Shown here: positions 27,183 to 48,879 of the stretch, piece after piece
Layout: each line of letters opens with the position of its first letter
Numbering within the stretch: the first letter of the stretch is position 1
NCBI RefSeq assembly: GCF_964194025.1
Contig: NC_134480.1
Span: 27,528,001-27,592,000 of the forward strand
Origin: Convolutriloba macropyga
Taxonomy: Eukaryota
Direction: 5' to 3'
DNA: 64,000 bases
Notes under the pieces: generated by a model
Told to the model about the DNA's origin: nothing
The model's database searches: none
What the model saw: only the letters and a program-made list of their open reading frames with translations
Made by a program: the position numbers and the translations under genes

Positions 27183-27704
27183 TTAATAAAGACTGGTTTT
27201 CTTCATGATTCTGAGGAACTCTGCCTCGCTAATCTCTCCGTCATTGTCCCGATCTGCTTCGTCAATCATCTCCTGCAGCTCCTCGTCTGTCAACTCCTCC
27301 CCCAATTCCTTCGCAACCCTCTTGAGATTCTTGAAGGAAATCTTTCCTGTGTTATCGTCGTCAAACAGTCGAAAGGCCTTCAAGATTTCCTCTTTTGGAT
27401 CTTTTTCTGTCATTTTCTGAGTCATCAGGTCTAAAAAGCTTCGATAGTCAATCTTTCCGGAGGAATCGATGTCGAGTTCCTGAGTCATTCTTTTAATTTC
27501 TTCTTTCTTTGGCTCGAATCCTAATGCCCTTAACGCAACTTTGAGTTCTTTGGCGTCTATGGTTCCACTGCCTTCGGTGTCGAACAAGTCGAAAGCTTCT
27601 CTAATTTCTTGTTTCTGTTCTTCAGTTAGCTCTGGCTTTCCAGTTGTACCGGCACCTTTCCGCTTGGCACCTCCACTAGCAGCCTTGGTTTTGGCAGTCG
27701 ACAT
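27183..27704 (-). CDS. CETN2: Centrin (centrin-1/2 type, 173 aa, four EF-hands), intronless CDS
   Basis: [18 protein letters not shown]...[12 protein letters not shown]...[16 protein letters not shown]...[15 protein letters not shown] at 27704; the longer ORF-track start is TTG and lies upstream of a tttcag acceptor at about 27720. Confidence 0.95.
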
Positions 27705-30102
27705 TTCTAGCTTTCTGATCTGAAATGAAATTGAACGTTGCAGAAGGCAACACTTGGAACATTTTGAATTAACACTCCAAATTGTACTCGCACAAGCACG
27801 TAAGTATGAAAACCCCCCGATAACTGAATACAAAGCTGTGATACAATCACATTTAACTTAGTGGGCTTCTGAACGCTTCATGTCCGAAAGTGATACGAGA
27901 GCTGGTATACTAGTTAATAAAACTGCATTTAATTTCTGTATGCCAAAGCATCAAATCAATTTCGTTTAAAAACTTTATTTAATTACAAGTGCAGACAACT
28001 GAGAACTAAAAGTTTCGATGTAGGATATATCCCAGGTAACAAAAGCTTGGAACAACCCCCCAACAGAAGGTGAAACCCAATACCTAAACAGAAACGGTAT
28101 TTTAATTCGAGATATTTTTATGATAACGTTAACTACTGACACAACAAAATTTGACCCCTCCCTTTAAATATACCTATTGCAAAAATATGTTCAAAACCAA
28201 CTTTTGTTTCTGAAATCGGTCCAGTATTAAATTTGCAAGACCTGAAAAAAAATCATTGGCCCTTGAAGATCGATTAACTCGAAAATGACCGGAAAACTTT
28301 AAAAAAACAAAATCAATTGCAAAATTTAAGAAAATGTTGCCCAATATTGTGACATAAATATCTTCAGAATCATTTCTGTATCTCTAGAGGCTATCCACTA
28401 ACCCAATTCCAAGCATTAAAAAATTAATTGGCTCAAAGATCGATAGGCAATAATTTTTTAAAAACTTCAAATAGAAATTTGTTCTATTAAAAGGTTGAAA
28501 CCATTCAATTGCCCCCTAACAACTATTTAATAACATATCATACTATCAAACCCTGGATGAGGCTACTTGGCTACTGAGGCAAGAAAAACTGAAGAAAAGA
28601 CAAATGTTTTGAAAAAACATGAAAAAAGTGCGAATTTTATTTAAAAATATCTGAAATTCGAAAGGTTAAATTGTTAAAAATAAATCCATTGAAACTAACA
28701 ACCAATCAATAACTTTTTATCAGACCGTGGAATAGGTTTTCTGACACTTGAGAATGGACAAATCAAAAATTGACAAAAACTTTAGGAGACCTTGAAAAAA
28801 TTTGCAGATTTTATCAAAAAATGCTAAAAATTGAGAAACTGAAATGTTGAAAAACAATCCATTGTTACTAGAAACCATGCAGTGCCCTATTATCAAACCT
28901 TAAAGGAGATTCCCTGGCCTCTGATAATGGAAAAACTCAAATGACAAAAATTTTCAAAAAAACATGAAAATTGCCAAAATTAGTATTATTTTGCGTGTTT
29001 GTGTTTGTAGTATCAAAACATATAGCTCATAAAATCGTCATAACAATTAATTTTGTCACACAAAAGGCCTTCATCAACTTTTAAAATCTTCAACCTAAGA
29101 CTAATCAAACTGAAAACTCAAAAAAATCACAAAACATGAAAAATTGCCCAAAAACTCCTAAAAATGATCTTTTAACCTTAAATTAAGGCCATCCCATCAG
29201 CTGCACCACTCTAAGCACTTGAAGGAATACTGAAGCCCACTGGTATACTTGGGACTCTAGTGAAACTTAATTCCCGCTGGGCTTTGCCTGTTTATCCCGT
29301 TTTGAAAGATCAAAGTCATTGAAAAATGTATGAACACATCTTAAAAAAAAATACAGCGCCCCAATACAATTCAAATTCTTCGAATTGTAAAAAAAATTAG
29401 GAGCGCTATAATAGCCGGCTGAGAAGATGAGGGCGGCTATTAAGCATCTTAAAATTATACTAACGTCGGGCGAATTGCTCTCGAGCGACCGGTGAGCAGT
29501 TGGCTTAGAGGGTGAGTGGTGTGGGGAATGAAGGTTGAGTGGGGGGGGGGGGGGGGGGATTGAACTCTTTAGATTGAGAGCCGCCCTTCACTGCATGAAT
29601 CACCTCTCAAACAATGACTTTTCTCATTTTACCAGCAGAATTGCTACTAACTCAAATGAGTGTTTCGAAGTTAAGAACTGACATTTATTCAGGAAATGCA
29701 TTTTGTACACGTAACTTTCTCCTGGGGAGGAAAATTGCGGATCAGAACATCTGGATATATTAAAAGCAACCAAACGTTCCTTACAAAAATAAGGCATTCT
29801 GAAAACGATAAAACAACATCTGCTCAAGCAATTTAAACTTGTACCATTCGAAAAAAAACATTCGCTATTTCAAAAGTTAATTTTAGATTTAGCAGAAAAC
29901 GGAACCCTTAATTTGAATTCAAAACATTCTACTGCAGAAATAGAATGTATAAACTATTACTGATTCCTAAACTTCAGCCGACTGATCATGACAGTAATTT
30001 ACTTGTCAGTTCGGGAAAAAATAACATGACAAGTCCTGAAATACAATCCAAAGAACTGAATGAAGAACTAAGAACTCCTTTATCTGACCAGCAGAACAAA
30101 TT

Positions 30103-33133: not shown

Positions 33134-33465
33134 AAAAGGTTTCTTGTCAACTTCTCGCTAATAAATCATTTTTACCAAGCAAGGGGACTGCGAATCTGCA
33201 AAACATTTGGTCAGAATAAGAGATTTGGAAAAGTTGCAAATAGAGGCGAAACTGCCTTTCTCGTTGAAATTAAACATTTTGCTTAAATTCAAAATGGAGC
33301 TTAATGTTTTCTTGTCAACTTCTCATGAATAATTCATTTTTACCAAGCAAGGGGGCTGTTAATCTGCAATAAATTCGGTCAGGATGTTAGATTTAGCGGA
33401 GAAATTCAAATTGAGATTAAACTTCATTATCTCAAGGGAAATCAAAATTGATTGTTGTTGGTGTT

Positions 33466-33803
33466 TATGATAACTCTCTTCTTAGTTTGCTTCTGCCTTT
33501 TCTATCTTTTTAGAGGCGGCTGTGTAGGTGCTAGTGCCAAGTGCTATATTGTATGAAGACGAGTTATCGTTGCAATATCCTTTCTAATAAAGGCTTTTAA
33601 TTGCAAGTTTTTGCTAAGTGCTATTCGGAGCGCGGGTTCGGTAAAAACGCTCTTTTTCTGCTACAAGTTTTCAATTCAAGTAATTTAGTAACCAACTGAA
33701 CTGTACTGCGCAGAATCGTCTGTCTGAATTTCAAGATAATAAAAGCGTGCTGTATGAATTTACAAAAGTCTTTTTCAACCAATCAAAATTTAGCATCGTC
33801 ATA
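33466..33803 (-). repeat. 3' LTR
   Basis: The 334-bp TG...CA core (33468-33801) differs from 48473-48806 at one position that I could find (agtaaccaa vs agtaagcaa); flanked by TA dinucleotides. Confidence 0.97.
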
Positions 33804-33822
33804 TTACGGCTCTTCAGAAAAA

Positions 33823-33897
33823 GCGGAGGCGATGGGTTTCGAACCTTTAATCTTATGATTATAAACAGGGTTGTCTAGTGTGCTGTGCCAAGTGGGT
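33823..33897 (-). ncRNA. Degenerate tRNA-like Pol III cassette adjacent to the 3' LTR
   Basis: On the - strand: A-box-like TGGCACAGC, B-box GGTTCGAAACC, then ATCGCCTCCGC and T5. Loosely resembles the initiator-Met tRNA 3' end; stems are poor. Confidence 0.35.
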
Positions 33898-34010
33898 CTT
33901 GATTAGTGGTATTGTCAAAGTCAACGGATTTACTGGGATAATTAAGTATAAATGGAAAGCAACATCAATAGTGGTTTGTTCTAAGTTTTTATTGAGTATT
34001 CCAGATCAAA

Positions 34011-34283
34011 ATGCTGAAAGTTTACTTTCTGTTTGGTCTTTTGTGGCCTCTTGTTTTCTCATCTCATGTATGCGAAGAAATTGAGCTGCGGAACGCGACT
34101 GCTGTATGTTGTGAGAAGAATACTACATTCCGCGTTGGCCAAGTGGATGTGAGCTTCGTGCCATATCGGAGCCATATTTGTCCAGTTGGTTATGGTGGGA
34201 TTGAAGATTTGTCTTCTCGATTCTTGCCAAATTTTTCAATGATGTTCGTGTTGGTCGTGGCAGGCGTAGTAAGCATGCATTAG
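34011..34283 (+). CDS. Small putative secreted/membrane-anchored glycoprotein (90 aa), element accessory gene
   Basis: N-terminal hydrophobic signal, 4 Cys, sequons NAT/NTT/NFS, hydrophobic C-terminus; TATAAA at 33947 and AATAAA at 34287. Confidence 0.5.
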   Translation: MLKVYFLFGLLWPLVFSSHVCEEIELRNATAVCCEKNTTFRVGQVDVSFVPYRSHICPVGYGGIEDLSSRFLPNFSMMFVLVVAGVVSMH

Positions 34284-34592
34284 AAAAATAAAGGCGTGCA
34301 GTTTTGTACAAAAATAGATTAAAAATGTCTGATTACGTAGTGGTGAGGCTCGATTTGTAGATTTAGGGCCTCCTGACCGCCCACAACTCCTTAAGTGAGG
34401 CATAAGTCTGCTTCGTCTTGGTATGAGGGCTGTTTTTCTCAGGACGTCCAGGTTCGTGGGCTCGCCCTGCCAAACGTATGTAATTTGCACGTAAGTGCGG
34501 TAAAGGGGTGTTTCTGGTATGCCCATTTTTATTAGCAGGGCGAGCCTCCCGTCGAAGGAGAAGAGTTGTGTGGGGTCAGGCTGATAGTTCAT
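34236..34592 (-). CDS. Hypothetical accessory ORF (118 aa)
   Basis: ATG-initiated, higher GC than its flanks, sense to the element; no recognisable motif. Confidence 0.35.
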   Translation of the reverse strand: MNYQPDPTQLFSFDGRLALLIKMGIPETPLYRTYVQITYVWQGEPTNLDVLRKTALIPRRSRLMPHLRSCGRSGGPKSTNRASPLRNQTFLIYFCTKLHAFIFLMHAYYACHDQHEHH

Positions 34593-34864
34593 TTGTTGTG
34601 TTTTCTTCGCTGCTGTTTTCTTCGCTGTTAAAAATAAAAGTGGAACTGAATAGATAAAGTGATGAATAGTTTCTTTTTTTGTCTGAGTAAGGTTAGAGTG
34701 GGAGGCCGTTCATTAGATTTTGTATCAGTGAGACAGTTATTTGATAATCTCTTCGGGTTTATTTGCATTTTTCCCAGGAAGATTAAAGTAGTAGTGATCT
34801 GTCAAGTGTGGCAGTTCCATTTGCTCCACGTTGTGAGGGGAGTAAAGTAATGAAGAAAATCCCA

Positions 34865-34958
34865 CGGCATGGCAGTAAATGACAGTCACTAATGGAGTTT
34901 TCGGAAGTAATTCCCTCGGTATGGCAGTAATTGACAGTCACTACTGGAAGTTTTGGAG
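34865..34958. promoter_or_regulatory. Two tandem ~52-bp repeats with a TGACAGTCA core, upstream of the JmjC gene
   Basis: cgg(c/t)atggcagtaa(a/t)tgacagtcacta repeated at 34865 and 34917; regulatory role is inferred. Confidence 0.4.
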
Positions 34959-35227
34959 GAAAGTAAATTGAGAACAGTGTGATTGACTGCTCTATTGATA
35001 AAGTTATTCAGAATACTTTTACTGCGAAGATGTCAAACTTTAATAGCGGCGTTATTCATCGACTGTTGGATATTTCATCGAAGCTTTGCAAAAACGATTA
35101 ATTGTAATAACGAAGAGACGGGATATTCTATTTTTTCAAAGTATGGACACTAAAAGGTTCGTTAATTACTTATAACAATTTAGGATTTCATAGGCTAGCA
35201 TTAATATTTTTTTGTAATTTTAAACAG

Positions 35228-36308
35228 AATTATCGTGTTTAGAACGACACGAGGCAGACAAGATTTGCTAATCGAAATGAACGAGTTCAAACATCAGTAC
35301 TACGATCGGAAAAAATTAATAAGTCTCGGATGGAAAGAAGTGGAAACAGTCGATGGGCGGGGTATAAATAGTTGGAACTCCTTAAAGAATAGGTTAACTA
35401 TAGAAGGTAGAGGGGGACTGGTTGGAGAGAATGGTTGGCCAAAGGTACCATTGGCAATAAATAATGAAGAAATTGTGGGATTACAAGAAAGTTTAGTAGA
35501 AGGGTTCCGGGGCTGTAGAGATCAGGGCGATGTGTATAATTATGTTAGTAAATTAAAGTTGGAGAGTGGTGATAGCAGGTTGTATCAAGAAGTTGGGTCG
35601 TATGCTGGTTTGTGTAATTCAATAGGTTGGACGTTTTGTGTGGATGGTTTGATGAGTGGTGTTTTGCCTGATGGTTTTACTGGTGTAAGGAGAGATGCCA
35701 TGTTACAATGGAATGATTGGTGGACGGCGGCACATGTTGAGATTGGGGGTAATGATAGTGTTTCGAAAACGCCGTGTGGTGAGAAATTGTTTCTGATTTG
35801 TGGAAGTTATCAGACATCAAGGGATTTTAATAATGTTATGGGTACTCCGCAATATTTTATGGATTTAATTAAGAGGCGTCCTTCTGCAAGTGGTTTGGGA
35901 AAGGATGTTTGGTTTTTCATTCCGACGAAAGATAATGTGTTGTGCCAGCCTTCGTTGTGTGCGCATGCTGTTTTAACTTTTACAAAAGATTTGTCGTTAG
36001 TGACGGGTTGGGAGGCGCGTGATCAATCGAATCAAGTTGTCGATCGGACTTTGGGATCGTTTGCTTATGGTGTGCGTAAAGGTGTGGTAAAAAGAATTGT
36101 AATATCAAATAAAAATAAAAAGGCAGTGTTAGACTGGGCGACAGAAAGAGAAGTATCAACTGGTGGTGCTAGTGATGTGACTGAGCATGTGCAAAGTTTC
36201 GCTAATAGTGGTCTAATTTTAAAAACAAATAACAAACGCAATCGAACGATAACGAGAATATTGTGTATTTGTTTCTTCCTCCAAAGGATCCTTCAATGGA
36301 ATAAGTGA
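35228..36308 (+). CDS. JmjC-domain Fe(II)/2-oxoglutarate oxygenase, KDM2/KDM7(PHF8)-like, antisense cargo of the LTR element (main exon)
   Basis: TAAHVEIGG...GEKLFLI...VLCQPSLCAHAVLT parallels the family pattern TDFHIDFGG...GEKIFYLI...TLFIPTGWIHAVLT. His-x-Glu at 35733, distal His at 35964, Thr at -3 and Lys at +17. Acceptor taaacag ends at 35227. Confidence 0.78.
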
Positions 36309-36899
36309 GTTGTTCAACTTTAATTTACATTTTTTTTCTAGGGTTAGAACTATACTGCCAGGTTTTTTTTTACTTTTTTTTGAGATTTTATTATTTCAAT
36401 CCCGTGCCCTTTCAACGTATTTTGAAAGGATTATTTTTCGTTGATACTGAGCAATCGGTTAGGGTCCTGTCTGTGTTTTGGTGTTGTTTTGAAAAAAAAT
36501 GATGTTTCGTCAGTTTTTTGGGTCGTTATTTTGCACAGTCGTATGTAGTTTAAGCAATTAATATTTTGACTTTCAGTCGCGTGCCCTTCGAAGTGATATC
36601 AAGGTGGGATGTTAATTTTTGTTGAGAATGGTTGGGAATAGATTAATTAATAATAGTTTGCTATGTTAGGGGTGCTTGCTCATTGTGCTCACGAGTTATG
36701 ACTCACGAGTAAATTTTTTTTTTGGTCAGAAGTAAAAAATTAAATTGGTAAGAAAATAAAAATAAGAAGAGGAGACGTTACATTTGAATAATTTGCGGTG
36801 TTTATAAAATAAGTACTACATTAAATTAATTGCGACTCATGAGAGAAAAGATTTAAAAAAAAATTTCGAATAAAAAAAATTAAAGAAATTTATGCAAGT

Positions 36900-37259
36900 C
36901 TAAGTGAATACACGGATGCCAACAGGGTCAAACTCAATGGGGTCGTCATTGTCCATATGAATAAAATCCCAGAATTGGTGGGTGAGTTGGGTACCTTGGG
37001 ATGAAGTGATGAAGTGGTAAACGTAGGTGTAGTATTCCCAGGTTGTGTAGAAAAAACATTTTTTCGTGAGAAGGCCTGTATGGGAGTGTGCCCAGATCAC
37101 GATGGTTCCATTTTGTAATATGACATATTCATTGAAAAAACATTCCCTGTATTGGATTCCTACTTTCACGCAAACGTTGATGTTGTGGTTCGTGTGAAAT
37201 TTTGGGGCGATGTCTTCTGGGCCGACGTAATTTCGGATTTGGTCCCAAATGCTTGTCAT
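36900..37259 (-). CDS. Hypothetical accessory ORF (119 aa)
   Basis: ATG in aaaaatcATG context; complex globular-type composition; unknown family. Confidence 0.5.
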   Translation of the reverse strand: MTSIWDQIRNYVGPEDIAPKFHTNHNINVCVKVGIQYRECFFNEYVILQNGTIVIWAHSHTGLLTKKCFFYTTWEYYTYVYHFITSSQGTQLTHQFWDFIHMDNDDPIEFDPVGIRVFT

Positions 37260-37354
37260 GATTTTTAAGAAAATTCAGAATTGGTAGGTTTTGAGATTTG
37301 GAAATATCAGGGAAAGAAAAGGTAAATATGGTTTTTTTTTTAAAAAAAAAGAAA

Positions 37355-37663
37355 TTACAGGTCAAATTCGCCTTCTAAAAATTCTTCTTTGGTGTTTTGT
37401 AAGAAATTCAAAAAGGTAAGAAAATTTGGATGATCTGGTTCCAAAGTGATTTTTTTTTCTTGATTATTATCCAAAAAGTTAATCCAGAAGCATAAGGTGT
37501 TGCAGGGGAATATGAAGTATTCAGAAAAGACTGCAAGTTTTATATCAAAATCAGTGAGAAAGTAAGCATAAAGTGGAAATTGGGTTGGAATTGGAGAGAT
37601 GTAAGGAATGGTGTCTTCTGATTGGTCAATTGTGGTGAAAGTTGGGGTTGGTGGATAAGACAT
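37355..37663 (-). CDS. Hypothetical accessory ORF (about 102 aa from ATG 37663)
   Basis: Head-to-tail with neighbouring ORFs; unknown family. Confidence 0.4.
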   Translation of the reverse strand: MSYPPTPTFTTIDQSEDTIPYISPIPTQFPLYAYFLTDFDIKLAVFSEYFIFPCNTLCFWINFLDNNQEKKITLEPDHPNFLTFLNFLQNTKEEFLEGEFDL

Positions 37664-37676
37664 GAGATAAGATTTT

Positions 37677-38141
37677 TTAATGGAATAGAAATGCAAATAT
37701 TTGAGGAAGTTTACATGGAGTCATCTGAGAATGGAATGGGTGATGGGGAGAAATTGGAATATAATTAAATTCAGTTGAATTGTGGTCTGATGTAGGGTCA
37801 GGGCTTTCGGGACTTTCAGAAATGGTTGGTTGCGATGGTTCTACTGCAACTGGTTCTCCTTCTGAGTTAAGATAAAAATTCACATTAATATAATTATTTC
37901 CCGATTGTATGCATTGTAGAATTGTTTGCCATACGGCTGATGTCTCATTCACTGTAAGGGAGATAAAAGAAATTGAATAAATATTGTTGACAATATTGTC
38001 CTGTTGCATGTTAATACTAATTATTGCTTCACGATCTGTAAAAAAGGCAATGCTGTATTCAGTAATATAAGCTGGCTGGCCGTTGAATGTAGTGTTAATG
38101 CGCGGCTCAACTTTACTTCTGAAGTGATATACTGGATTCAT
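37677..38141 (-). CDS. Hypothetical accessory ORF (about 154 aa from ATG 38141)
   Basis: Open frame of 180 codons in AT-rich DNA; Pro/Ser/Glu-rich tail; unknown family. Confidence 0.45.
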   Translation of the reverse strand: MNPVYHFRSKVEPRINTTFNGQPAYITEYSIAFFTDREAIISINMQQDNIVNNIYSISFISLTVNETSAVWQTILQCIQSGNNYINVNFYLNSEGEPVAVEPSQPTISESPESPDPTSDHNSTEFNYIPISPHHPFHSQMTPCKLPQIFAFLFH

Positions 38142-38223
38142 AATAAAATGTTTGAAATAATGCAAAATGTAAAATTTTAGTTGTAGGAAATTGTTTAGGT
38201 TGTTTGAAATAATTTCCAAGTTT

Positions 38224-38616
38224 CTATCCGCGGAGAAATTGTAATAGGTTGAGAGAATGAACAGTTAGCAATGAATAGTGTTGCTGGTAGTTAGCAGGCA
38301 GAAAGTAGTTTGAATGATGGATGGTGTTGCGGGGGAATTGGGGGAAATTTGACATTTTGATTAATTGGGATTGTGGGGAATTATCCCTGGTTGGGTTGAT
38401 TAGTGTTCCATTATAGGCTTTCATTGTGATTGATGGACAGTTCGCCTTCCGGGTTAATGGATTTCCTTCTTTTTCTCGTTTTGACAGATAATTGATAAGT
38501 TTCCTTTGGGAGTTGCATCTTATTACTCCGTTGTTTAGTGCGTCAGTATAAATTCTTTTTAAAAATAAATTCGTCGCTGGATAAAAAGGTAGGGAGCAAA
38601 TCACCGCCTTTAACAA
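38224..38616 (-). CDS. Hypothetical accessory ORF (130 codons, start uncertain)
   Basis: Open frame in the same array; TTG start in the track. Confidence 0.3.
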   Translation of the reverse strand: MLKAVICSLPFYPATNLFLKRIYTDALNNGVIRCNSQRKLINYLSKREKEGNPLTRKANCPSITMKAYNGTLINPTRDNSPQSQLIKMSNFPQFPRNTIHHSNYFLPANYQQHYSLLTVHSLNLLQFLRG

Positions 38617-38930
38617 TGGAGGTTTAAGGGGAATTGCTCTGTAATTTTTCCTTGTCGATTTTTCTCAAAGAATAACTGCAAGTAATGAAAATTTCGGTTT
38701 AATACTCGAATAATATCAAAATTTTGAATTAAGTTTTCGCAAATATAATGGTAGGTACTTTCCAGATGGAGGATAGGTCTCTCTGGTTTACTTAGGGCTA
38801 TTAGAAATGTTGTTAATTAATATATTTTTTTAATTTTTTATTTTTAAGTTTTGTTTTCCTTGCTCACTGCTAACACAAGATTTCTAATTTGCGGCAGAGT
38901 AGAAGTGAATGTAATTGATAACTTTTAACA

Positions 38931-39002
38931 AGTGACTTAGTTCAGTGGTTAGTTTCTCTGGCCGTTGAGCTGGGGTTCCGGGTTCGAATCCCGGCGGGTT
39001 CC
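38931..39002 (+). ncRNA. tRNA-like Pol III cassette
   Basis: A-box TAGTTCAGTGG and perfect T-arm CCGGG-TTCGAAT-CCCGG at tRNA spacing; acceptor and anticodon stems do not pair well. Confidence 0.6.
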
Positions 39003-39158
39003 CGGTGCTTCCATAATGTGGGAAAATCTGGGAAAGGGCAAAGGGGTGTAAGGGTAAGCTAGGGTAAGGGGGTAGAGAAAAAGGGGAAGGGTAAAAAAAA
39101 TTTAACTTTTTTTTCCTTTTTTTTAATTTATAAGCTGTTTTTACGGACCACGCGGCCG

Positions 39159-39236
39159 TCCCACTTAGCGCAGTTGGTAGCGCGCTGCACTCTCATACTG
39201 AAGTTGAGGGTTCGAGTCCCGGTCAGGTTTTTTTTT
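39159..39236 (+). tRNA. tRNA-Met(CAT)-derived gene or pseudogene with T9 terminator
   Basis: TAGCGCAGTTGGTAGCGCG D-arm, TCTCATA anticodon loop (CAT at 39194-39196), CTGAAG, B-box GGTTCGAGTCCC, then T9; acceptor stem degenerate. Confidence 0.6.
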
Positions 39237-39237
39237 C

Positions 39238-41616
39238 TTAAACGTTTCCTGTATTGATTGTTCTGAGAGGGTACGCTCCGTAATGGGATATTGGTGGGTG
39301 TTCTGGTATATGTGTATAGATGGGCTGACTCGGTGCGGCAGGCCTGTTGACATGATCAATTTTGATAGTTGGTTCTCCGTTACGTTTTAGTCTCCTGATG
39401 TAGTCTCTTAGGAATGTGTAAGGAGTGCGAGGTTTATTTATGTTTTCTTCGTTTTGGTTTTCGAACTCAGTTTTAATTTCGAGTGGTAGTACTAGTGAGC
39501 AATTGTGCAGGGGATGTTCTGGATGTTCTTGTAGGTATTCATAGTCATTTAATGCAACAACTTGTACTGGTTTTGTTTTTATTCGCCGTCCTTCGTGTGT
39601 TATTCGGAAAGGGAAACGTCGGTGAAGTTTTGCCCATTTGTGTAAAAGATGCGAATAAGTTAGATGTAGTAATACGCTATTCAAGAAGGATAAAAATCCG
39701 AAAAGAAGAGACATTTTCCATGGTATGTACTGTTCGAATCGGTGTTCGAGTTCGGGCTTGAATGCTCTTATTCTTTCTAAAATTGGTTCGGCCATTTGTT
39801 CTATTGATTTGCTGTTTGTTCGTCGTGTTTCCATTTGTTTAAACTCTGGTTGAATTTGCTGAAGAATTTGAATTTGTGCCTCAGATCTTGATGAGAAGTT
39901 TGGTAGTTCATCCAATGGGGGCAGTAGTTTGAAGAGTGTACCTATTGGATCTGGTAATTGAAAATCTAACCGTATTGCCGGTACTGTGTCACAAGCAGTG
40001 AGGTCTGAGCGACGATGAACATTTGGTCCTCTAAGCTGTTTTCCACATCCCAGTGTGATGATACACACTCTGCACCCAGGATGCTCAATTCTTGCCAATG
40101 GATTGCTGCCATTACCAGCGCTTTCGATGAGTGTATAATCGTCTTTGGACGATGTTATTAACCAACGACCGAAGCCGAGATTGCGTGCTTTTTCAGTCAA
40201 CGGCAATTCTACTACATCCAGTTGACAGCGTTGCAATGCAAGTAGCTCGTCATCGTGGTAAAGTAAAGTAGCCATACAGGACTGATAAGTCTGTTCTGTT
40301 GGAATAGCTTTGGTGCATATTGCGTATTTTTGGGATCCGATACAATTTGCGAGCTCGTCTTCATCGATAAACGCTAGTTCTTCTCCGTCGTCTGAGACGG
40401 CCATGTATTTGGCTTCAAGTCGCCAAACTAAAGCTTTACCCGTATCCCCGTCCGGCATTGGGATCGGAATGGCATGCAATACGTTCATAACTGTACTTTT
40501 TGAAGCCATTGGAATTGCAAGTGTAAGTATAAGACCTGCGTCAATTGCCTCGACTTAAGTGACTAATTTCGTTTCACAGTACGAGAGAATCTCTTGGATT
40601 GGTACGGCTAGAGATAATCCATCCTGTTGTCCATTTTGTTGCAAATGAACAATCGTAAGAATTTCATGCAACTGCTCCCTTGGGACTAATGACATTGGTA
40701 ATAGTTGATTCATGAGAGGCGTCAAGGCATTCAGTATGTTGATTCCAAACGTATAAAGGGCCGATCGGTATGTTTTGATGTTAGCAAGTATTGCTTGAAA
40801 AATATTGCTAAGTACAAGACTATGTTGGTTGATTTGTTCTCTTACGTATAAGTATTGGATGCAGTTTCTCATGTGGTGCACGTTTTGTCGTAACGCCTTG
40901 AATTGTCCTTCAGCAAGTTCCCAGTTCCTGTTTTGTGTCTCTATTATTTCGTTCTGGGCTTCTTTGATGGCTTTCAGTTCACCTGATACAACATAGAATT
41001 TTTCATTGTTTTGGATTGTTATTTGTTCGACATGATCGGTTAGGTATTGAAGATAAGCCATTGCTTGTCTGATGTTTTTCTGGTTTCTAGCCACTCTTTT
41101 GTCGCATCCTCCAAACACTGATTTGATGAAGCATAGTAATTTGTCGCCTGTTCCTATTCCAATTCCCAGCACTGCGGCTGCTGCTGCTGCGGCAGCCGCA
41201 CCGAGGGGTTGTCTTTGCAGTGTTGTAGAAGTTTGACTGTTTGCTCTTAGTAGTGTGTTCATTTCCAATTTGAGGTTTACAATGTCGTGTTGGGCCTGTT
41301 GGTTTTCTATCATTGTTTGTTGCGCTATCCAGTGGAGGCCTGCTGTCGAGTCAGTCATATTTGTGAAATTCAATGGGCATCCATAATTTTCTGAAGTCCA
41401 CATTTTGTCTATCTCTTTTGTCAGGTTGATCAGTTTGTCTTCCACTGTTTTGTTATATATTGGGTAGGGGACCAGGATTTCAGTTTTGACAAATTTTTCT
41501 GTCAATAGAATTTTCTGGTGAAGGTTGAATAATACTCCATCTTTTGTTGCCACCGATGGTTGGTTCGTTTTCATCAAGGGTAAAAGTTGTAGTAAAAATA
41601 GTACGATATTGAGCAT
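39238..41616 (-). pseudogene. env: env, class I fusion (F-type) glycoprotein, 793 codons with one in-frame TAA at 40555-40557
   Basis: Signal peptide, N-glycosylation sequons, fusion-peptide-like PLGAAAAAAAAVLGIGIG, heptad repeats, LPMSLVPREQL motif, Cys-rich region, TM segment and cytoplasmic tail. The two track ORFs share one frame. Confidence 0.85.
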
Positions 41617-42318
41617 TTTGCTAGCTAGGCTTGTTTGTGAAATTGAATCAGAGTCTTTGTGCGACCGATTTTGAGGTACAAAATTTTGGAAAATGATTTG
41701 AGCTGTGTCTTTTTTCCTTTTAAATTAGGATTTTTTTGGAGTGTTTTCATTGGTTGGTGACGTATCTAATGTGTATGTATAATAGAGAATTGGTGCTCAA
41801 TTCCTATTGGCTGTCATCTTCGAAGCCAAAAGTTTGGTGAAGGTTTCCGTTGATCTCCCGACGGTGAAGTGTTAGCGGAACAATTCTTCGTCTGTTTTGA
41901 AGCGTTGGGCCAAGGTCCGCTAGTTCTCTGTTGGATACTCTTTGAGGAAGTGGTGAAGATGTTCTTGGGTTGTCGTGTTGAGCAATAGCACTATTGCTTT
42001 CGTTATTTTCAATTTGTGAAATGGTGCCTCCTATAAGGGAGTGCTCATTGTTCTCGTCGGATCTCGGTTGTTGGACATCATCGCTTGAGGTTGTATTGTT
42101 GTAAATATCGTTGATCGAGTTGGTCCGGTAAAAGGTTTCGCCTGTAGTGTCTAATATTGGGGGCGTGTAGACGGGGCTATCAACGTCATCAAATAGATCG
42201 CCAAGATTTTCAGATGAATCGAACGTGAAGTCATTGAGACTCTGGTTTCGCGACTGTGAGCTTGTTGCTTGTGAGTCTGCAATGCTCTCATCGTGATCAG
42301 TTTCTGTTGTATCAATTG

Positions 42319-45300
42319 TCAGGTTTGGGTCTGGGATGTGGTCAAGTGGGAATAAGTTATTACTTTGACCTGTTCTTCCTTTGCTTTTTCTGATGGTTGC
42401 AAGAGGTTATATAGCGAGTTTTCTCGGGCCAATGCCAGATGATCATTTCTGCGAAGGTTGTATCGTCGATTTGAGCCAAAACGACTGTCGGACGGTAAGA
42501 AGTTCGAGAAGACGTAGTCTCCTGTATCAATTGATTCTGGTGTTTCTTGCGTGTTTGCGCTTGGAACTGAGCCTTCCACGAAGAATGCATCTTGGTCAAA
42601 CGTCGGTTCGTGTGTCATATCATGAAATTGTATTGGCGGGTCTTCAGAAGAAAAATTAGCTGTTTGGATGTTTGAGTTGAAAGAAACTGACTGGACATCT
42701 GGTGTTGTTATGGGTAGCTGCATGTTGTCTTCGTTAATGTGGTGCCTGACTTGGTTGTCGAACAGCTGTGGTTCTCTCTCTTCTTCTGGTATGGTGGGAT
42801 CTGCTTCAAAGTTTTCGGGGTCTACATGTTCGAGGTCTTCTACTTGATATTGAGGTTTCACAGGTCGAAGTCTCATTCGATGGATACATTACGTGTAATT
42901 TGTGTTGGTTTTGCGTACAATGTAGTTTGCATTCATGAGCAATTTTTCTACTCTGTATAATGGTATCCACCTGCTTTGCTGTTTATTCACCACTGCTACT
43001 TGTGTTGTGCTTTTTGGGTCAAGGATCAGGCAGTATGATTTGGGTTTTAGTGGTGTGGCGTTGGCTTTTCTGTCATAGTACTTTTTATATTTCAGATAAG
43101 ACGAGATAAGGTTGTCTTTTACGCTGGAGAAAAGCTCCGTAGTTTTGTCTTGTAGCTCTTTAATGCAGTCGTATTTTGGGTGAGACGCCCATAATTTTGT
43201 ATTCTGAAATCTGAGGTCCAAAGGATTTATCGGTGTTCTGCCGTGAAAGACTTCAGATGGCGTGCACCCAAGAGCTGGTGCAAATGTTGTGTTGTGTATG
43301 AATACTGCAATGTCAACGTATCTATGCCAGTCCGAGGAAGTTTGGTTTTCGTTAATTCTCAAGATTTGTTTGAGCGGTGCGTGGTTTCTTTCAAGTAAGC
43401 CAATGGTTTGCGCATGTTTCAGTGTGCAATGTTTGAGCTCTACCTCCAATAGGTTTGCTAGTTCACTCATTAATTCGGATGTAAACGCAGTTCCAAGGTC
43501 ACATATGATTCTTGAGGGAATGTAGGAGTGTCTCAGAAAAATTGAGACAAGGGCTCGTGCTACGATGTCTGCGTCGCCTTTCATAAGGGGTGTGGCGAAA
43601 AGGTACTTCGAGAACACGTCAATACCTGAGAGAATGTAAGTGTAGGGAGAAGGGTGCATCTTTCCCACCAGATCTATTAGTAAAGGTCTGCTGGGAAGTT
43701 TTGCAGAGACGAAAGTGGTTGTAATGGAGGTTTCAATGCAGATGTTGGTGCTGGTTTTGTTTGCAAGCATGTGAGACAGTTTCTGATATATTCTGTTAGG
43801 CGTTCAGTGAAGTTCGGGAAGTAAAATCGTTTTCTAAATTCTGCTATTGTCAGTGAGACTCCTTTGTGCCCACTCCAAACACTGTTATGAATTCTGTAGA
43901 GTACTTCATTCTGTAAGTGCGACGGGACGCAATATTGTTTAATAAATTGGTTTCCAGTGTGGTTATAGAACTAGCGATGAAGGACGCCTTCTGTTATCGA
44001 TAGTCTTGGGAACTGCTGGAGATACTTTTTTAGGTCACTGGATAGATATTGTCCTGTAGTCGGTGAACCTCTCTCAAACCAGAGCAGTACCCGTTTGATA
44101 TCTTTGTCTTGTTGTTGTTCGTGCTAAAGGTCGTTCTAAAGGTCCGTGCCCATGAGTGATGAATTCATCCAATGGGTTTTGTTCATGCATGGCGTTTATT
44201 TGTTGCGTTGCAGGTGCAAGAATTTGCAGTTGGACGTCAGCTCGAACATTCATAGGATCTTCTCCGCTGGTTTGTTTTCTCTCAAGTAAGTATGTCTTCA
44301 TAATTTTGGGGGTATCGTCATTTTCTGAGCTGCTCAGATAACTGATTGAATTGTCAGGTGTATCTGCTGCTGTGTTGATTTCGATTTCGTGCATCGGTAC
44401 GCGTGAGTTGACGCGTAACTCGAACTTCTCTTTCGGGTTTATGTGTATTCTCGACAGATAAGCCGCTGCTAAATTGGCTTTTCCGGGTATGTGTCCCAGT
44501 ATGATGTCGAAGCTGAGTGCATGATCGAGAGCATTCCAAAGTGTTGGCGGTATAATTTTTGTTTGGAAGAACCTGGTTACTGTTCTGTTGTCTGTCAAAA
44601 TGAGAATTGGTTTTTTACATCCCCATATAATATTTGCAAAGGTATCTAGGGCAAAGTGAACTGCGAGGAATTCTTTCGCATATATCGAAAGTTTGAGTTG
44701 GTTTGGGTGGAAAATTCTAGATCCAAAACTGACGGTTGCATAAATTTTCAGTTCCTGATTATCATCATTTGTTGTGTAGTCTTCTATCATTAGTACGTAT
44801 CCGGCTGCGTAAAAGGATGCATCGGCCATTATTACATATTGCTGGTCAACTTTGGGTAATCTGAGTGAAAGGTCACAGGCTGTTCTTAGATCATTTGTGA
44901 GCTTTTCCAGCATAACTTGGTGTTCTTCTTCTATCACGAAATTGGTGTCTCTCTTAAGTAGACGATAGAACGGTAAAAGTTTTTCAGCAAGTTCAGGGAT
45001 AAAGGCTTTGTAAAATTGAAAAAATCCGATCATTCGTTTGACTTGTTTTGGGTTTCGCGGCATTCTGAATGTTTTCAGAAAGGTTGTAATCTTCTGTGTA
45101 ATTGGTGTGAGACCCTCAGAGGTTATCGTATTGCCAAGGAATTGTATTTCTCTGAGTCCAAATGCGCATTTGTCTGTTGCGAGTTTCATTCCTGATTCTC
45201 GGATGCATGTAAAGACTGCTCGAAGTTTTTCCAACATGTCGTTTGTGTCATGTGCTCCGATGCCAATGTCGTCGACGTACTGAAAGCATTTATCCGCTGT

Positions 45301-47013
45301 TATCACGGGGTCCAGGTTTTGACGCATGAATGAGCTAAAGGCGCTGACACTTCTGCTTAGTCCTTGGGCTAGTCTTTGAAAAGCATATATTCTCGATGCG
45401 AAGTTGAAGGCCAGTAACTGTACTGATTGTTCATCTGCCATTGGTACAGAGAAGTAGCCGTGCCTGCCATCCATCTTGCAAAAGAGTTTCTTGCCGGGTA
45501 AGTGGGTGCCCGCATCTGCTAGTGTAGCTATCGGGAAGTTGTTATTGTTGTAGTCGTTTCTAATGAGATGGTTTATTTTTCTTAGATCTACTAATATTCT
45601 GAGCTTCCCGTTTGGCTTCCGTTTTGCAAATATTGGAGATGAGTAGCGGCTGAAGGGGAGCGTTGTTATGACTCCGTAGTACTGGAGAAGGGCTAGTTCA
45701 ACAAGCAAATCGTCTTTGAGATGGATTGAAATTCTTTGAGTTTTTGAGTATACAGGTCTGTTTGTGTCTGGTGTCAATTTGACTGAGAATTTGTGAGTGT
45801 AGCCAATGTCAAGGCGGTGCCTTGTGAATATGTCATTGAATTCGACTAGAAGCTGTTCTGTTCTTTCTTTATCTTTGTCAGAGAGTACGCTGTTGCTCCA
45901 TTTGAATGCGTTAAGAAAAGTTTTCCTGTCTTCGTTTTTCGAGAGTGGTTGAATTGCTTCAAGATTTTTAAATTTAACAAGTTCGTCATATATGCGTTTT
46001 TCAACTTCACTCATCTTTGATGTGTCGGGATTGGTTTCTGGGGTCGGAAACCAGAATCCGTTTTCGTGTTTTATTGTTATATGATTTATTTCGCCTTTTG
46101 CTGTTCTCTCTATAGATTTTTTTATTTGCTTTATTGTTTTCTTTGAGTCGCTTGATGGGAGAAGTTTTGGCTCAAGTGGTATCAGGTAGCGTGCTTGCTC
46201 TGGTGTGATGATTTCGAATGTTGCTACTGGAGAGTCTTGTCTAATGTGCAGTGGAACTTCTGTTGTAATGATTGCAAGTAGGGTGGTAGTTTTGTTTTTT
46301 GTAAGTTTGTCAAGCGTGCTTGTTAGACCAAGGCCCAGTTTTTCAAATTTAACAGTAGGCTCTACGAGTCCAATTTGTTCTTGTGCATCAGTTTCCTCCG
46401 ATGGTATTAGTTCCAGGGATTTTTGTTTCCCAGGTGATAGCGTATAGGTTGTTTTGGTTTTGAGCATGATTTTTTTTCGGCTGTTGAGACGTTTTTGTTT
46501 GTTGTTGCCTTTTATGTGCATTAGATTTAGCTGAAAAGTGAATTCTGGTGTTTGGAGTAGTCTGTTGTGGGCATCAATAATAATCTCATTTTTATCAAAG
46601 AAGGGAAAGCCAAGAAGGATAGCGGAAAGTGTTTCAAACACCATGAACTGTTCCTCAAATTGTAAGTGGCCAATTTTGAATGTCAGTTGGACTGTAAATA
46701 AAATGGGTGATTGGTGTAGGAAAGCTGTAGAAACGTTTATTTCAGGAGGATTTGTTTTTTCTGGTTTTTGGTAGAGGTTTCTGCTTATTTTATCAAAATG
46801 TTTCTTTGACATGGCGCTGCTGAATGCTCCAGTGTCTGCTAATGCTTTCATTATTAATGTTTCGAACTGCAGAGGCATTATGAATACATTTTCGCTATAG
46901 TTTGTCATGCTATCTGGTATATGTTGTAGAAAAACATGCAGGTTATTTAGTTTTTTGATTGCTGATTGAATGGCATGTTTCCATCCCGGTATGCTGGTTG
47001 ACGTTCTGGACAA
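42319..47013 (-). pseudogene. pol: pol (protease, RT, RNase H, integrase plus acidic C-terminal extension), disrupted
   Basis: PR ALADTGA; RT YVDD; RNase H ADAS..E..TD; IN HHCC (HNSVWSGH...CLTC, about 43890-43770) and D-D-E (IDL, CDLG, LERNH). Lesions: frameshift about 44120, TAG 43972, frameshift about 43680, TAA 42889. Confidence 0.95.
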
Positions 47014-47984
47014 TCTCGGGCAGTGTGCTCATTGCTAGCACATGTTCTGCAAAATGTTCTCATTGGTGTAGGAGATCTTTCGGTACGTCCATTACTTCGG
47101 TCGTTTCGTTGGAAGTTTGACCTTCCTCTCGAATAATTTCCTCGACCTCTCTGAAAGCTACCACGGTTGCGTCCTCTGCTGTTGTAGTTGTTATTGTATC
47201 CTCGGCCATTTTGGTTTCCATTATACTGGTATGTCTGTCTGTTGTGGTTGTAGCCTCTGTAGTTATTTCCTCTTCTGTAGCTAGGGTACTGAGTACTCTC
47301 CACGCGCTGATAAGGTGGCTGTGCTACTTGCATTGATGCTATTCCTGCCGCCATTATGCTTTCTATGGCTCGGGCCACAGCAGGGTTTCCTGATGCGTTT
47401 AGTGTATTGAATGCCGTGGTGTATTGTGGTTCGGGGTTTATCTGATCAATTCTGACTCGTCGTTTGATGATAGCGCACAGTTCGTTTACAGTGATGTTGT
47501 CATTCTCTTTCAGCAACACATTCTTGTACTTGAAGGGCATGCCTTGAATGAATTGTTCTCTTATTCGTCTTGTTCTTTCGTCAGTGCGGTCTATGTGAGC
47601 TGCAGGATCGTCCACAATTGCGAGGTTGGCGAGGCGTTGCAGATCTGTGAGGAAGTCATCTGGTTGTTCTTTCACTGGATCAAACTTTCTCGATTGCAGA
47701 TCGAGCTCAAAGTTTCTTCTTTGGTCTGCTCCTGCATATCGGTTGCGTAGTTGTTCAAGCGAATCGTCTAGATCGTTTCTTGTGTTTTCGGCGAGTCGAA
47801 GGTAATAGTTGAGTGCATTACCGGCTAAGTGTAGGTGAAGATATCTTGCACGTTGGTGGTTCGCTTCAGGAATTCTAGATACAGCAATGCTTGCTCTCAG
47901 TAGTCTTTCAAATTCAGGCCAGTTTTCGTTTGGTAGTCCTGAGAACCTTTTCAGATGTACGTGAGGTGGACTTGGATCTGCCAT
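46947..47984 (-). CDS. gag: gag (capsid-like domain, RG/N-rich linker, CCHC zinc knuckle)
   Basis: FSGLPNENWPEF..LHLAGNALNYY..EQPDDFLTDLQRLA..EQFIQGM; CRTCASNEHTARDC knuckle. Confidence 0.93.
   Translation of the reverse strand: MADPSPPHVHLKRFSGLPNENWPEFERLLRASIAVSRIPEANHQRARYLHLHLAGNALNYYLRLAENTRNDLDDSLEQLRNRYAGADQRRNFELDLQSRKFDPVKEQPDDFLTDLQRLANLAIVDDPAAHIDRTDERTRRIREQFIQGMPFKYKNVLLKENDNITVNELCAIIKRRVRIDQINPEPQYTTAFNTLNASGNPAVARAIESIMAAGIASMQVAQPPYQRVESTQYPSYRRGNNYRGYNHNRQTYQYNGNQNGRGYNNNYNSRGRNRGSFQRGRGNYSRGRSNFQRNDRSNGRTERSPTPMRTFCRTCASNEHTARDCPERQPAYRDGNMPFNQQSKN
46950..46956 (-). promoter_or_regulatory. Putative -1 ribosomal frameshift heptamer A-AAA-AAC
   Basis: Slippery heptamer immediately before the gag TAA, inside the gag/pol overlap. 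Confidence 0.7.
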
Positions 47985-48470
47985 TTTCTTTTAGTCAGTT
48001 CGTTGTTAAAGTGTTTTTGTGGAAAGAGCAATTTGTACGCTTCTCCAATTTAGCTGTGTCACAGAGTTTGCAGTTTAGGCTATTTGGTTGGTCTTTTGTG
48101 TTCTTCGCTGCAAGTTTTTGACTTACTTTTCTGTCGATTGTTTTGTCGTTGAAGAATACGAACGGGTTTCTAGGATGATAGCCTTCCAATAGTGTCATAG
48201 AAGTATTGTTGTGGCTTGCGTTGTATTTTCTCTTTGCTAGCAAAACAAAGAGGTTGATGCTCAAATAATTGTGAATGGGTAAAGTTGGTTTGTGCTTGTG
48301 GTTTGGTTAGTTTCTCGAATTCGGTAGTTTTGAAAGAAATTGTAAAGTTCTGAGTTTTTTGTAATACGGATCCGTTTGATATCGGTTTGATTGTCTTCTT
48401 GTGCGATAAAATAAAGGCTAATTCCGGTGTTTGTTTTTCTAATGATTCGAAGGTTGTAAGTTTTTCCGTT

Positions 48471-48808
48471 AATGATAACTCTCTTCTTAGTTTGCTTCTG
48501 CCTTTTCTATCTTTTTAGAGGCGGCTGTGTAGGTGCTAGTGCCAAGTGCTATATTGTATGAAGACGAGTTATCGTTGCAATATCCTTTCTAATAAAGGCT
48601 TTTAATTGCAAGTTTTTGCTAAGTGCTATTCGGAGCGCGGGTTCGGTAAAAACGCTCTTTTTCTGCTACAAGTTTTCAATTCAAGTAATTTAGTAAGCAA
48701 CTGAACTGTACTGCGCAGAATCGTCTGTCTGAATTTCAAGATAATAAAAGCGTGCTGTATGAATTTACAAAAGTCTTTTTCAACCAATCAAAATTTAGCA
48801 TCGTCATA
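48471..48808 (-). repeat. 5' LTR
   Basis: Direct repeat of 33466-33803. Confidence 0.97.
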
Positions 48809-48879
48809 GTGTTCTTTGAAATAATGGTTTTCAGTCGACTTCTTGTTAAAAATCAAGAGACCTAGTCAATTTGTGGTTC

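Follow-up and report, generated by a model that had tools for sequence, protein, structure and literature searches.

Several eukaryotic mobile elements and viruses carry enzymes or readers of epigenetic marks. The endogenized giant viruses of Amoebidium encode KDM4-like JmjC proteins that are reader-less, parasite-borne, and proposed to act against heterochromatin (10.1101/2024.01.08.574619). Orchid Gypsy (Ogre/Tat-like) elements bear an extra Fe/2OG oxygenase ORF, of the AlkB/2-ODD class, which is kept across subfamilies, is described as recently acquired, and has demonstrated m6A RNA demethylase activity (PMC9289625). The TET/JBP proteins of fungal DNA transposons are likewise epigenetic erasers transferred among unrelated lineages with a proposed anti-silencing role but, unlike JmjC proteins, are DNA-base dioxygenases; the accessible text of that study has no retrotransposon with TET/JBP and no JmjC, and cites SET-bearing HarbingerS and MuDR elements (PMC12730594). 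Retrotransposons with DNMT, DAM, or MBD modules have also recruited epigenetic enzymes or readers, but, in the sections available, these act on or read DNA methylation (PMC5890265, PMC6673714). The available text of 10.64898/2026.05.21.726589 lists VANDAL, chromodomain, DNMT, TET, and MBD cases without the term "JmjC"; Grau-Bove et al. (10.1101/2021.11.30.470311) describe chromatin-domain/transposon fusions and do not name JmjC in their main text, while their Supplementary Table 6 could list demethylase fusions; and the accessible part of Arkhipova and Yushenova (PMC6431247) gives many cargo domains of Burro, none of them an oxygenase. The counter-silencing enzymes of mobile elements for which we found a description either target DNA or RNA methylation or are borne by giant viruses, and how animal retroelements escape H3K9/H4K20-methyl heterochromatin is largely an open question. 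We found no published description of JmjC cargo in an LTR element in the full-text literature searched, outside which lie most subscription papers and Repbase Reports.

The locus described here adds a well-supported new form to the element-encoded epigenetic enzymes, namely a JmjC protein in a clade of LTR elements, for which an anti-silencing role is a reasonable and testable proposal. It lies in a window of 64,000 nucleotides from the genome of Convolutriloba macropyga (NC_134480.1, positions 27,528,001 to 27,592,000). In contrast to the multi-exon KDM4-type gene of a giant DNA virus, it is an intronless gene of KDM7/2 type placed antisense in an LTR retroelement; in contrast to the AlkB gene of the orchid element, it is a deeply diverged JmjC gene of a clade with env-like genes. 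With the cellular KDM7 (KDM7A/JHDM1D, PHF8, PHF2, ceKDM7A) and KDM2 proteins it shares the whole catalytic-core fold and the motifs T-x-x-H-x-D/E-x-G-G, G-x-K at His+17, and distal H-A-V-x-T. However, it is only 11-14% identical to them, has Glu for the Asp iron ligand, lacks PHD, CXXC, F-box, and LRR domains, has the pocket Tyr/Phe/Tyr/Asn replaced, and is intronless and element-borne. The element and its features are as follows (window coordinates; residues numbered from the GTG start):

33466-48808, minus strand: young Gypsy element with gag, pol, and an env-like gene (from LTRs, TSD, and Pfam domains; env-like gene by architecture and weak PDB matches)
33466..33803, minus strand: 3' LTR, ends TATGA...TCATA, with the TSD GTGTT at 33461-33465
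35235..36308, plus strand: predicted JmjC oxygenase ORF, no reader domain (from profile, fold, and motifs)
35724..35741, plus strand: T164-x-x-H167-x-E169, predicted 2-oxoglutarate Thr and first two iron ligands
35784..35786, plus strand: K184 in GEKLFLI (His+17), predicted 2-oxoglutarate-binding Lys
35964..35966, plus strand: H244 in HAVLT (His+77), predicted distal iron ligand
36900..38264, minus strand: putative small sense-strand accessory ORFs between env and the JmjC gene
39238..41724, minus strand: env-like gene, with one in-frame stop in the window copy
42319..47028, minus strand: pol (protease, RT, RNase H, integrase), in several frames in the window copy
46947..47990, minus strand: gag with zinc knuckle (Pfam/ORF reading)
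48471..48808, minus strand: 5' LTR, with the TSD GTGTT at 48809-48813

By its LTRs, TSD, gag, and PR-RT-RH-IN order, this is a Ty3/Gypsy element: its LTRs are identical at 339/341 positions over the aligned stretch and are bounded by the 5-bp TSD GTGTT, and a Pfam search of the window detected gag, protease, RT, RNase H, and integrase, all within the element. The env-like gene matched no Pfam env family, and its family profile gave weak matches to class I fusion proteins in the PDB (E 0.013-0.03); by eye it has a signal peptide, a fusion-peptide-like stretch, and a C-terminal hydrophobic segment. The window copy itself is defective: it lacks the primer-binding site that its siblings have beside the 5' LTR, its pol is broken into several frames, its env carries a stop, and its JmjC frame diverges from theirs near the end. 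Two of the accessory ORFs in 36900-38264 recur in subfamilies B and C at 30-40% identity and are candidate targeting partners. A further sense ORF (34236-34709) was rejected as a gene, as it shows no conservation in siblings.

An initial annotation of the window had placed a 357-codon ORF inside the TSD-bounded element, between env and the 3' LTR and on the strand opposite to gag, pol, and env; the coordinates and the LTR/TSD check agree with this placement, and the T-x-x-H-x-E, GEKLFLI, and HAVLT motifs lie where it put them. The stop-free plus-strand frame spans 367 codons (35205-36308), and its product is 357 amino acids long if read from GTG 35235 and 343 if read from ATG 35277, the first ATG. 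Which start is used is uncertain, since the resemblance to other subfamilies extends upstream of this ATG and an acceptor-like TTAAACAG ends at 35227. Neither the length of the ORF nor its motif is due to chance: local shuffling of the element (200 replicates) produced no plus-strand open run longer than 201 codons, with 0/200 attaining 367, and the JmjC motif pattern occurred in 0/20,000 protein shuffles and 0/120 pol proteins. The annotation had also read a strand bias as a sign of long residence, and the third-codon letters of the ORF on the plus strand (A.26, C.07, G.28, T.39) indeed match those of pol (.21,.12,.26,.41 in the same order). The C-terminal tails of most members of the family have basic Lys/Arg clusters. 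The window ORF departs from them by a frame change near 36240, after about residue 322 (ATG numbering), which supplies its last ~20 residues; most siblings have a different end with a basic tail, most of which the window copy has lost.

The assignment to the JmjC superfamily comes from profile and fold. Searched alone, the window protein matched 0 Pfam families and nothing meaningful in the PDB. The comparison with PF02373 that the annotation had proposed gave no match above the cut-off for the window protein, and only 5/81 relatives reached E<=1 (best E 0.011). We read this miss as divergence, since profile and fold agree with each other. A profile search of 1.84 billion representative sequences recovered 220 relatives at E<=0.001, and an 81-row alignment (A2) was built from four C. 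macropyga genome sequences, one relative from an earlier search, and 76 chosen by length from 150 listed. Against the PDB, A2 gave 11 matches at E<=10, of which nine are KDM7-family structures (PHF8, ceKDM7A, KDM7A, PHF2; best PHF8, E=0.0039) and two are unrelated, with the PHF8 alignment spanning the HxE, K, and distal H; A2 was the only profile to match, the narrower A1 and A3 retrieving no JmjC structure. The AlphaFold model built with A2 has a pLDDT of 90.5 and a predicted double-stranded beta-helix JmjC fold, and the top 14 chains found with it by Foldseek are all KDM7/KDM2. In VIA-align, ceKDM7A (Z 15.7, 261 residues, rmsd 4.8) and KDM2A (Z 14.7) precede the hydroxylases JMJD5 (Z 13.9 over 196 residues), TYW5, and JMJD6 (Z 13.4), a lead of only ~2 Z units at 11-14% identity. 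The KDM7 match extends from the region ahead of the JmjC barrel through the barrel itself to the helical bundle that follows. In the ESM Atlas, the nearest entries to one sibling are JmjC clusters, fungal for the most part and with weak annotation (0.96; recognition 2222, just below the threshold). Thus, profile and predicted structure both point to KDM7/KDM2 as the closest JmjC core, in agreement with the KDM2/KDM7-like label first given to the ORF; also as first noted, Pfam and the model show no PHD and no CXXC reader, nor any CXXC-PHD-F-box-LRR architecture, in the window protein. It resembles a JmjC oxygenase of KDM7/2 build but lacks the domain architecture and the pocket residues that mark the KDM7 and KDM2 subfamilies.

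By sequence alignment to PHF8 and by conservation, the H-x-D/E...H iron triad and the 2OG Lys and Thr are in place: across A2, the Thr is kept in 68/78 rows, the His in 72/78, the Glu in 74/81, the Lys in 76/81, and the distal His in 61/67, i.e., in ~87-94% of rows among proteins only 20-35% identical. In KDM2A, by contrast, the methyl-lysine pocket consists of Y199, F215, Y222, and N298, with N298A being inactive in the part of the study available (PMC4197961), and these align in sequence register with D154, I170, S177, and E260 (the last by eye). Among the relatives, position 154 is Asp in 43/74, 170 is variable, 177 is Ser, Ala, or Thr in 76/81, and 260 is Glu in 54/61. By alignment, then, the KDM2/7 pocket residues are not conserved, with the aromatic walls absent and the essential Asn replaced by Glu; the cofactor-binding residues noted at the outset are conserved in ~90% of relatives. 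In PHF8, Phe250 and Tyr234 are reported, in the accessible text, to restrict trimethyl access (PMC13632499). The loss of aromatic residues and the acidic pocket base would be compatible with a pocket that is wider for methyl-lysine, or else with a change of substrate. Among 27 genome loci, open copies have the Lys replaced in three and the distal His in one; these are the open JmjC frames of L102, L141, L140, and L161, with Gln or Asn for the 2OG Lys or Asn for the distal His.

The gene is not confined to the window. The window protein has at least 125 matches in the 1.18-Gb assembly, corresponding to well over a hundred intronless copies, and many additional intronless subfamilies (25-55% identity) emerge with more distant queries. 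Of the 30 top-scoring copies, a set biased toward intact genes, 26 have no stop within codons 1-322, and the motifs are present in every one. Synonymous sites have reached saturation between subfamilies A, B, and C, whereas dN is 0.24-0.46, and identity by codon position between A and B is.66/.72/.38. Older pairs within subfamilies have dN/dS of 0.22-0.44. The youngest pairs mostly have dN/dS of ~1 or more, and many copies have stops, both as postinsertional decay would produce. For 11 natural ORFs, a codon model gave an omega of 0.116 (the comparison with omega=1 used a fixed, unoptimized kappa, and weight is placed on the omega value itself). The lack of a JmjC fold, and absence or neutral decay in siblings, had been named beforehand as outcomes that would refute the proposal; neither test refuted it, the fold being present in the model and the ORF proving a clade-wide gene rather than a one-off insertion. 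The JmjC frame is under purifying selection, kept at the level of the element, and the ORF is a real, selected accessory gene of a Gypsy clade with env-like genes. Several carriers have LTR pairs that are 99-100% identical, indicating that this clade was recently active.

To understand the contexts of the gene, we examined the flanks of 36 other loci, chosen for different hit groups rather than at random (two non-member loci are uncounted). Gypsy contexts account for 27/36, with the JmjC gene after env in five and on the pol side of env in 22, and it is clearly antisense in 26 of the 27; in L140, it is antisense to its own env with a second gag-pol nearby, and in L144, env lies outside the examined stretch. 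Another 7/36 adjoin genes for SET domains joined to a recombinase-like protein, and L138 and L139 (2/36) have no recognized context. Coordinates point to four further JmjC-SET adjacencies beyond the examined loci. The best PDB matches of the SET domains are KMT5A (E 3.6e-8) and SUV420H (E 7.7e-17), both H4K20 methyltransferases. The putative recombinase matches nothing in Pfam, PHROG, or the PDB, and its predicted model has a pLDDT of 44; by eye it has R-K-HxxR-H-Y motif-like residues, and the Atlas leads to a cluster with 15% Phage_integrase at 0.93.

In 22 elements, JmjC identity correlates with integrase identity with a Mantel rho of only 0.36 (p 0.001), against 0.76 for integrase versus env, and the median identities of JmjC (23%), env (37%), and integrase (51%) mark the JmjC protein as the fastest diverging. 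Elements B and C share 97.7% identity across 6.5 kb of pol-env but 68% across the JmjC gene. In L080/81 and L100/101, pol and env show 93% identity, yet the segment in between cannot be aligned and the JmjC genes belong to different clades. The SET-adjacent JmjC genes fall in three separate places among the Gypsy genes in a quick tree with SH-aLRT support only, whose well-supported branches force three changes, which implies repeated exchange. From these comparisons, the JmjC gene is an exchangeable cassette that has passed between Gypsy elements and between these and SET-recombinase-like elements. Fast divergence and cassette swaps with the catalytic residues kept would fit a gene engaged in conflict with the host.

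C. macropyga has its own PHD-JmjC KDM7 gene, and we found no close parent of the element JmjC in its genome: the Pfam-detectable JmjC loci were rejected as parents, being ordinary KDM3-7/JMJD/TYW5-like genes (by eye) or decayed copies. A comparison of profiles with the host KDM7 exon yielded a probability of 49% (E 1.7e-4), which is suggestive only, and direct capture from this gene is not supported because the branch is too long; the placement relative to KDM7/KDM2 used host outgroups only, with very long branches, and the first tree was a quick one with long-branch warnings. The best matches of four outside relatives in the C. macropyga genome reach only 34-45%, so the family is probably present in other genomes, where such cargo, being invisible to Pfam, is probably under-annotated. 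Pattern scans of IMG/VR gave 106 and 10 matches, none confirmed, and a metagenome scan gave one matching contig of 1,389 nt without context.

As to function, we consider it about an even call that the protein is a nuclear methyl-lysine demethylase countering the silencing of element copies. The JmjC gene would be transcribed from its own antisense unit, and the product may enter the nucleus through its Lys/Arg-rich C-terminal tail and demethylate nucleosomal methyl-lysine, with repressive methylation of H3K9 or H4K20 as the likeliest target; its removal would keep element copies transcribable, and a protein lacking a reader would either act broadly or be recruited by a partner. PHF8, for comparison, is an H4K20me1/H3K9me1-2 demethylase in the available text (PMC13632499). 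The demethylase reading gains support from the family traveling with H4K20-type SET domains in 7/36 loci. Pre-SET proteins resembling SUV39H and SETDB1 are encoded by the host (identified by eye in the translations), and CpG is barely depleted in the window element (o/e 0.89), making histone methylation a plausible pressure. Against this reading stand the missing reader domain and the lack of a known route to the element's own copies, and KDM7-type specificity cannot be assumed because the KDM2/7 pocket residues are not conserved.

In a bolder form, the pocket, having lost the aromatic walls by which KDM7 is confined to mono- and dimethyl-lysine, could admit trimethyl marks. The protein would then be a reader-less KDM7 core with a pocket opened to trimethylated H3K9/H4K20, serving as an anti-silencing cassette traded among retroelements and H4K20-methyltransferase DNA elements and held by an animal retrovirus-like clade for a very long time. 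We offer this fuller version tentatively, as possible rather than probable; if true, it would imply that chromatin writers and erasers owned by the elements form a common pool. In either form, the question can be tested in vitro, as the element JmjC is a small, single-domain protein with dozens of natural variants in which the catalytic centre is kept and the pocket varied.

A more doubtful reading is that of an active JmjC oxygenase that, like JMJD5, JMJD6, TYW5, or the orchid AlkB protein, hydroxylates or demethylates a non-histone substrate; this could be a protein of the element, a host protein of restriction or silencing, or an RNA (e.g., tRNA primer or genomic RNA). The apparent remodeling of the methyl-lysine pocket and the closeness of JMJD5, TYW5, and JMJD6 in the structural ranking favor it, as do the Macro domains of related elements, which may point to conflict with protein-modification defenses beyond chromatin, and the precedent of an RNA demethylase in a Gypsy element, as far as that report is available (PMC9289625). 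However, the sequence profile finds only KDM7-family structures among JmjC proteins, the fold match includes the KDM2/7 helical bundle, and the basic tail and the association with H4K20-type SET domains also speak against it.

It is unlikely that the enzyme is histone-directed without being self-protective, instead resetting chromatin at integration sites or on unintegrated DNA, or changing the state of host cells in trans (their cycle, or stem and germ cells), e.g., through H4K20me1 or H3K36me2. The absence of a targeting domain would suit such a role, an H4K20 writer in the same element fits the tuning of a mark better than its simple erasure, and KDM2 removes H3K36me2, a mark of active chromatin, in the accessible part of PMC4197961; yet silencing by H3K9/H4K20 methylation is the obvious selective pressure on elements, and the present observations do not discriminate between the two histone readings. 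Very improbable is a binder or decoy for which catalysis is dispensable, covering methylated tails or sequestering partners of host KDM proteins: the few open-frame lineages without the Lys or distal His would suit it, but the retention of the five catalytic residues in most rows at such low overall identity speaks against it. That the ORF is a neutral passenger, i.e., a retrocopied host gene or chance frame, has negligible probability and is refuted, despite the near-neutral youngest pairs and the stop-bearing copies, by the omega of 0.116 across subfamilies with saturated synonymous sites, residue conservation, the shuffle tests, open frames in very divergent elements, and the want of a close host parent.

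Several other observations on these elements and their genome deserve record. The LTRs of subfamilies A-C (window, L126, L127, L129, L130) end in TA...TA and those of L090/91 in AGT...ACT, rather than TG...CA, with target duplications of 5 bp. Tandem arrays of 2-5-kb units with the JmjC gene, inside or derived from elements, occur at L131/L132, L133/L134, L138, and L047. In one Gypsy sub-clade, a Macro domain follows the integrase (Pfam E 1.3e-5 at best; L080:6717-7538, L093, L099, L100, L102, L136, L137, L141, L143, L144), with Macro and JmjC in one element. Multi-copy SET elements with a JmjC gene beside them are seen at L142:2609-6484 (plus strand), L082/L083, L094/L095, L096/L097, and L161, and at L104/L105 and L135; their SET domains are KMT5A-like or SUV420H-like and are joined or adjacent to the tyrosine-recombinase-like protein. 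These SET-recombinase-like elements form at least three families, some without a JmjC hit listed nearby.

The host KDM7 gene has dispersed partial copies: its PHD-containing beginning recurs, interrupted by stops, at least eight times (L113-L121; 79-87% identity), which suggests capture by another repeat. L069 and L070, the latter in a local repeat, are decayed KDM2/7-like JmjC fragments unrelated by profile to the element-borne JmjC. Beyond these, a Gypsy pol whose RNase H and integrase are separated by a cytosine methyltransferase and a PHD-like finger occurs mostly on small contigs, L150-L154 among them, and may stem from a co-assembled alga; it resembles the known DNMT retrotransposons. 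Finally, the window contains a calmodulin-like ORF with four EF-hands by Pfam (27183-27857, minus strand), 5.6 kb from the element.
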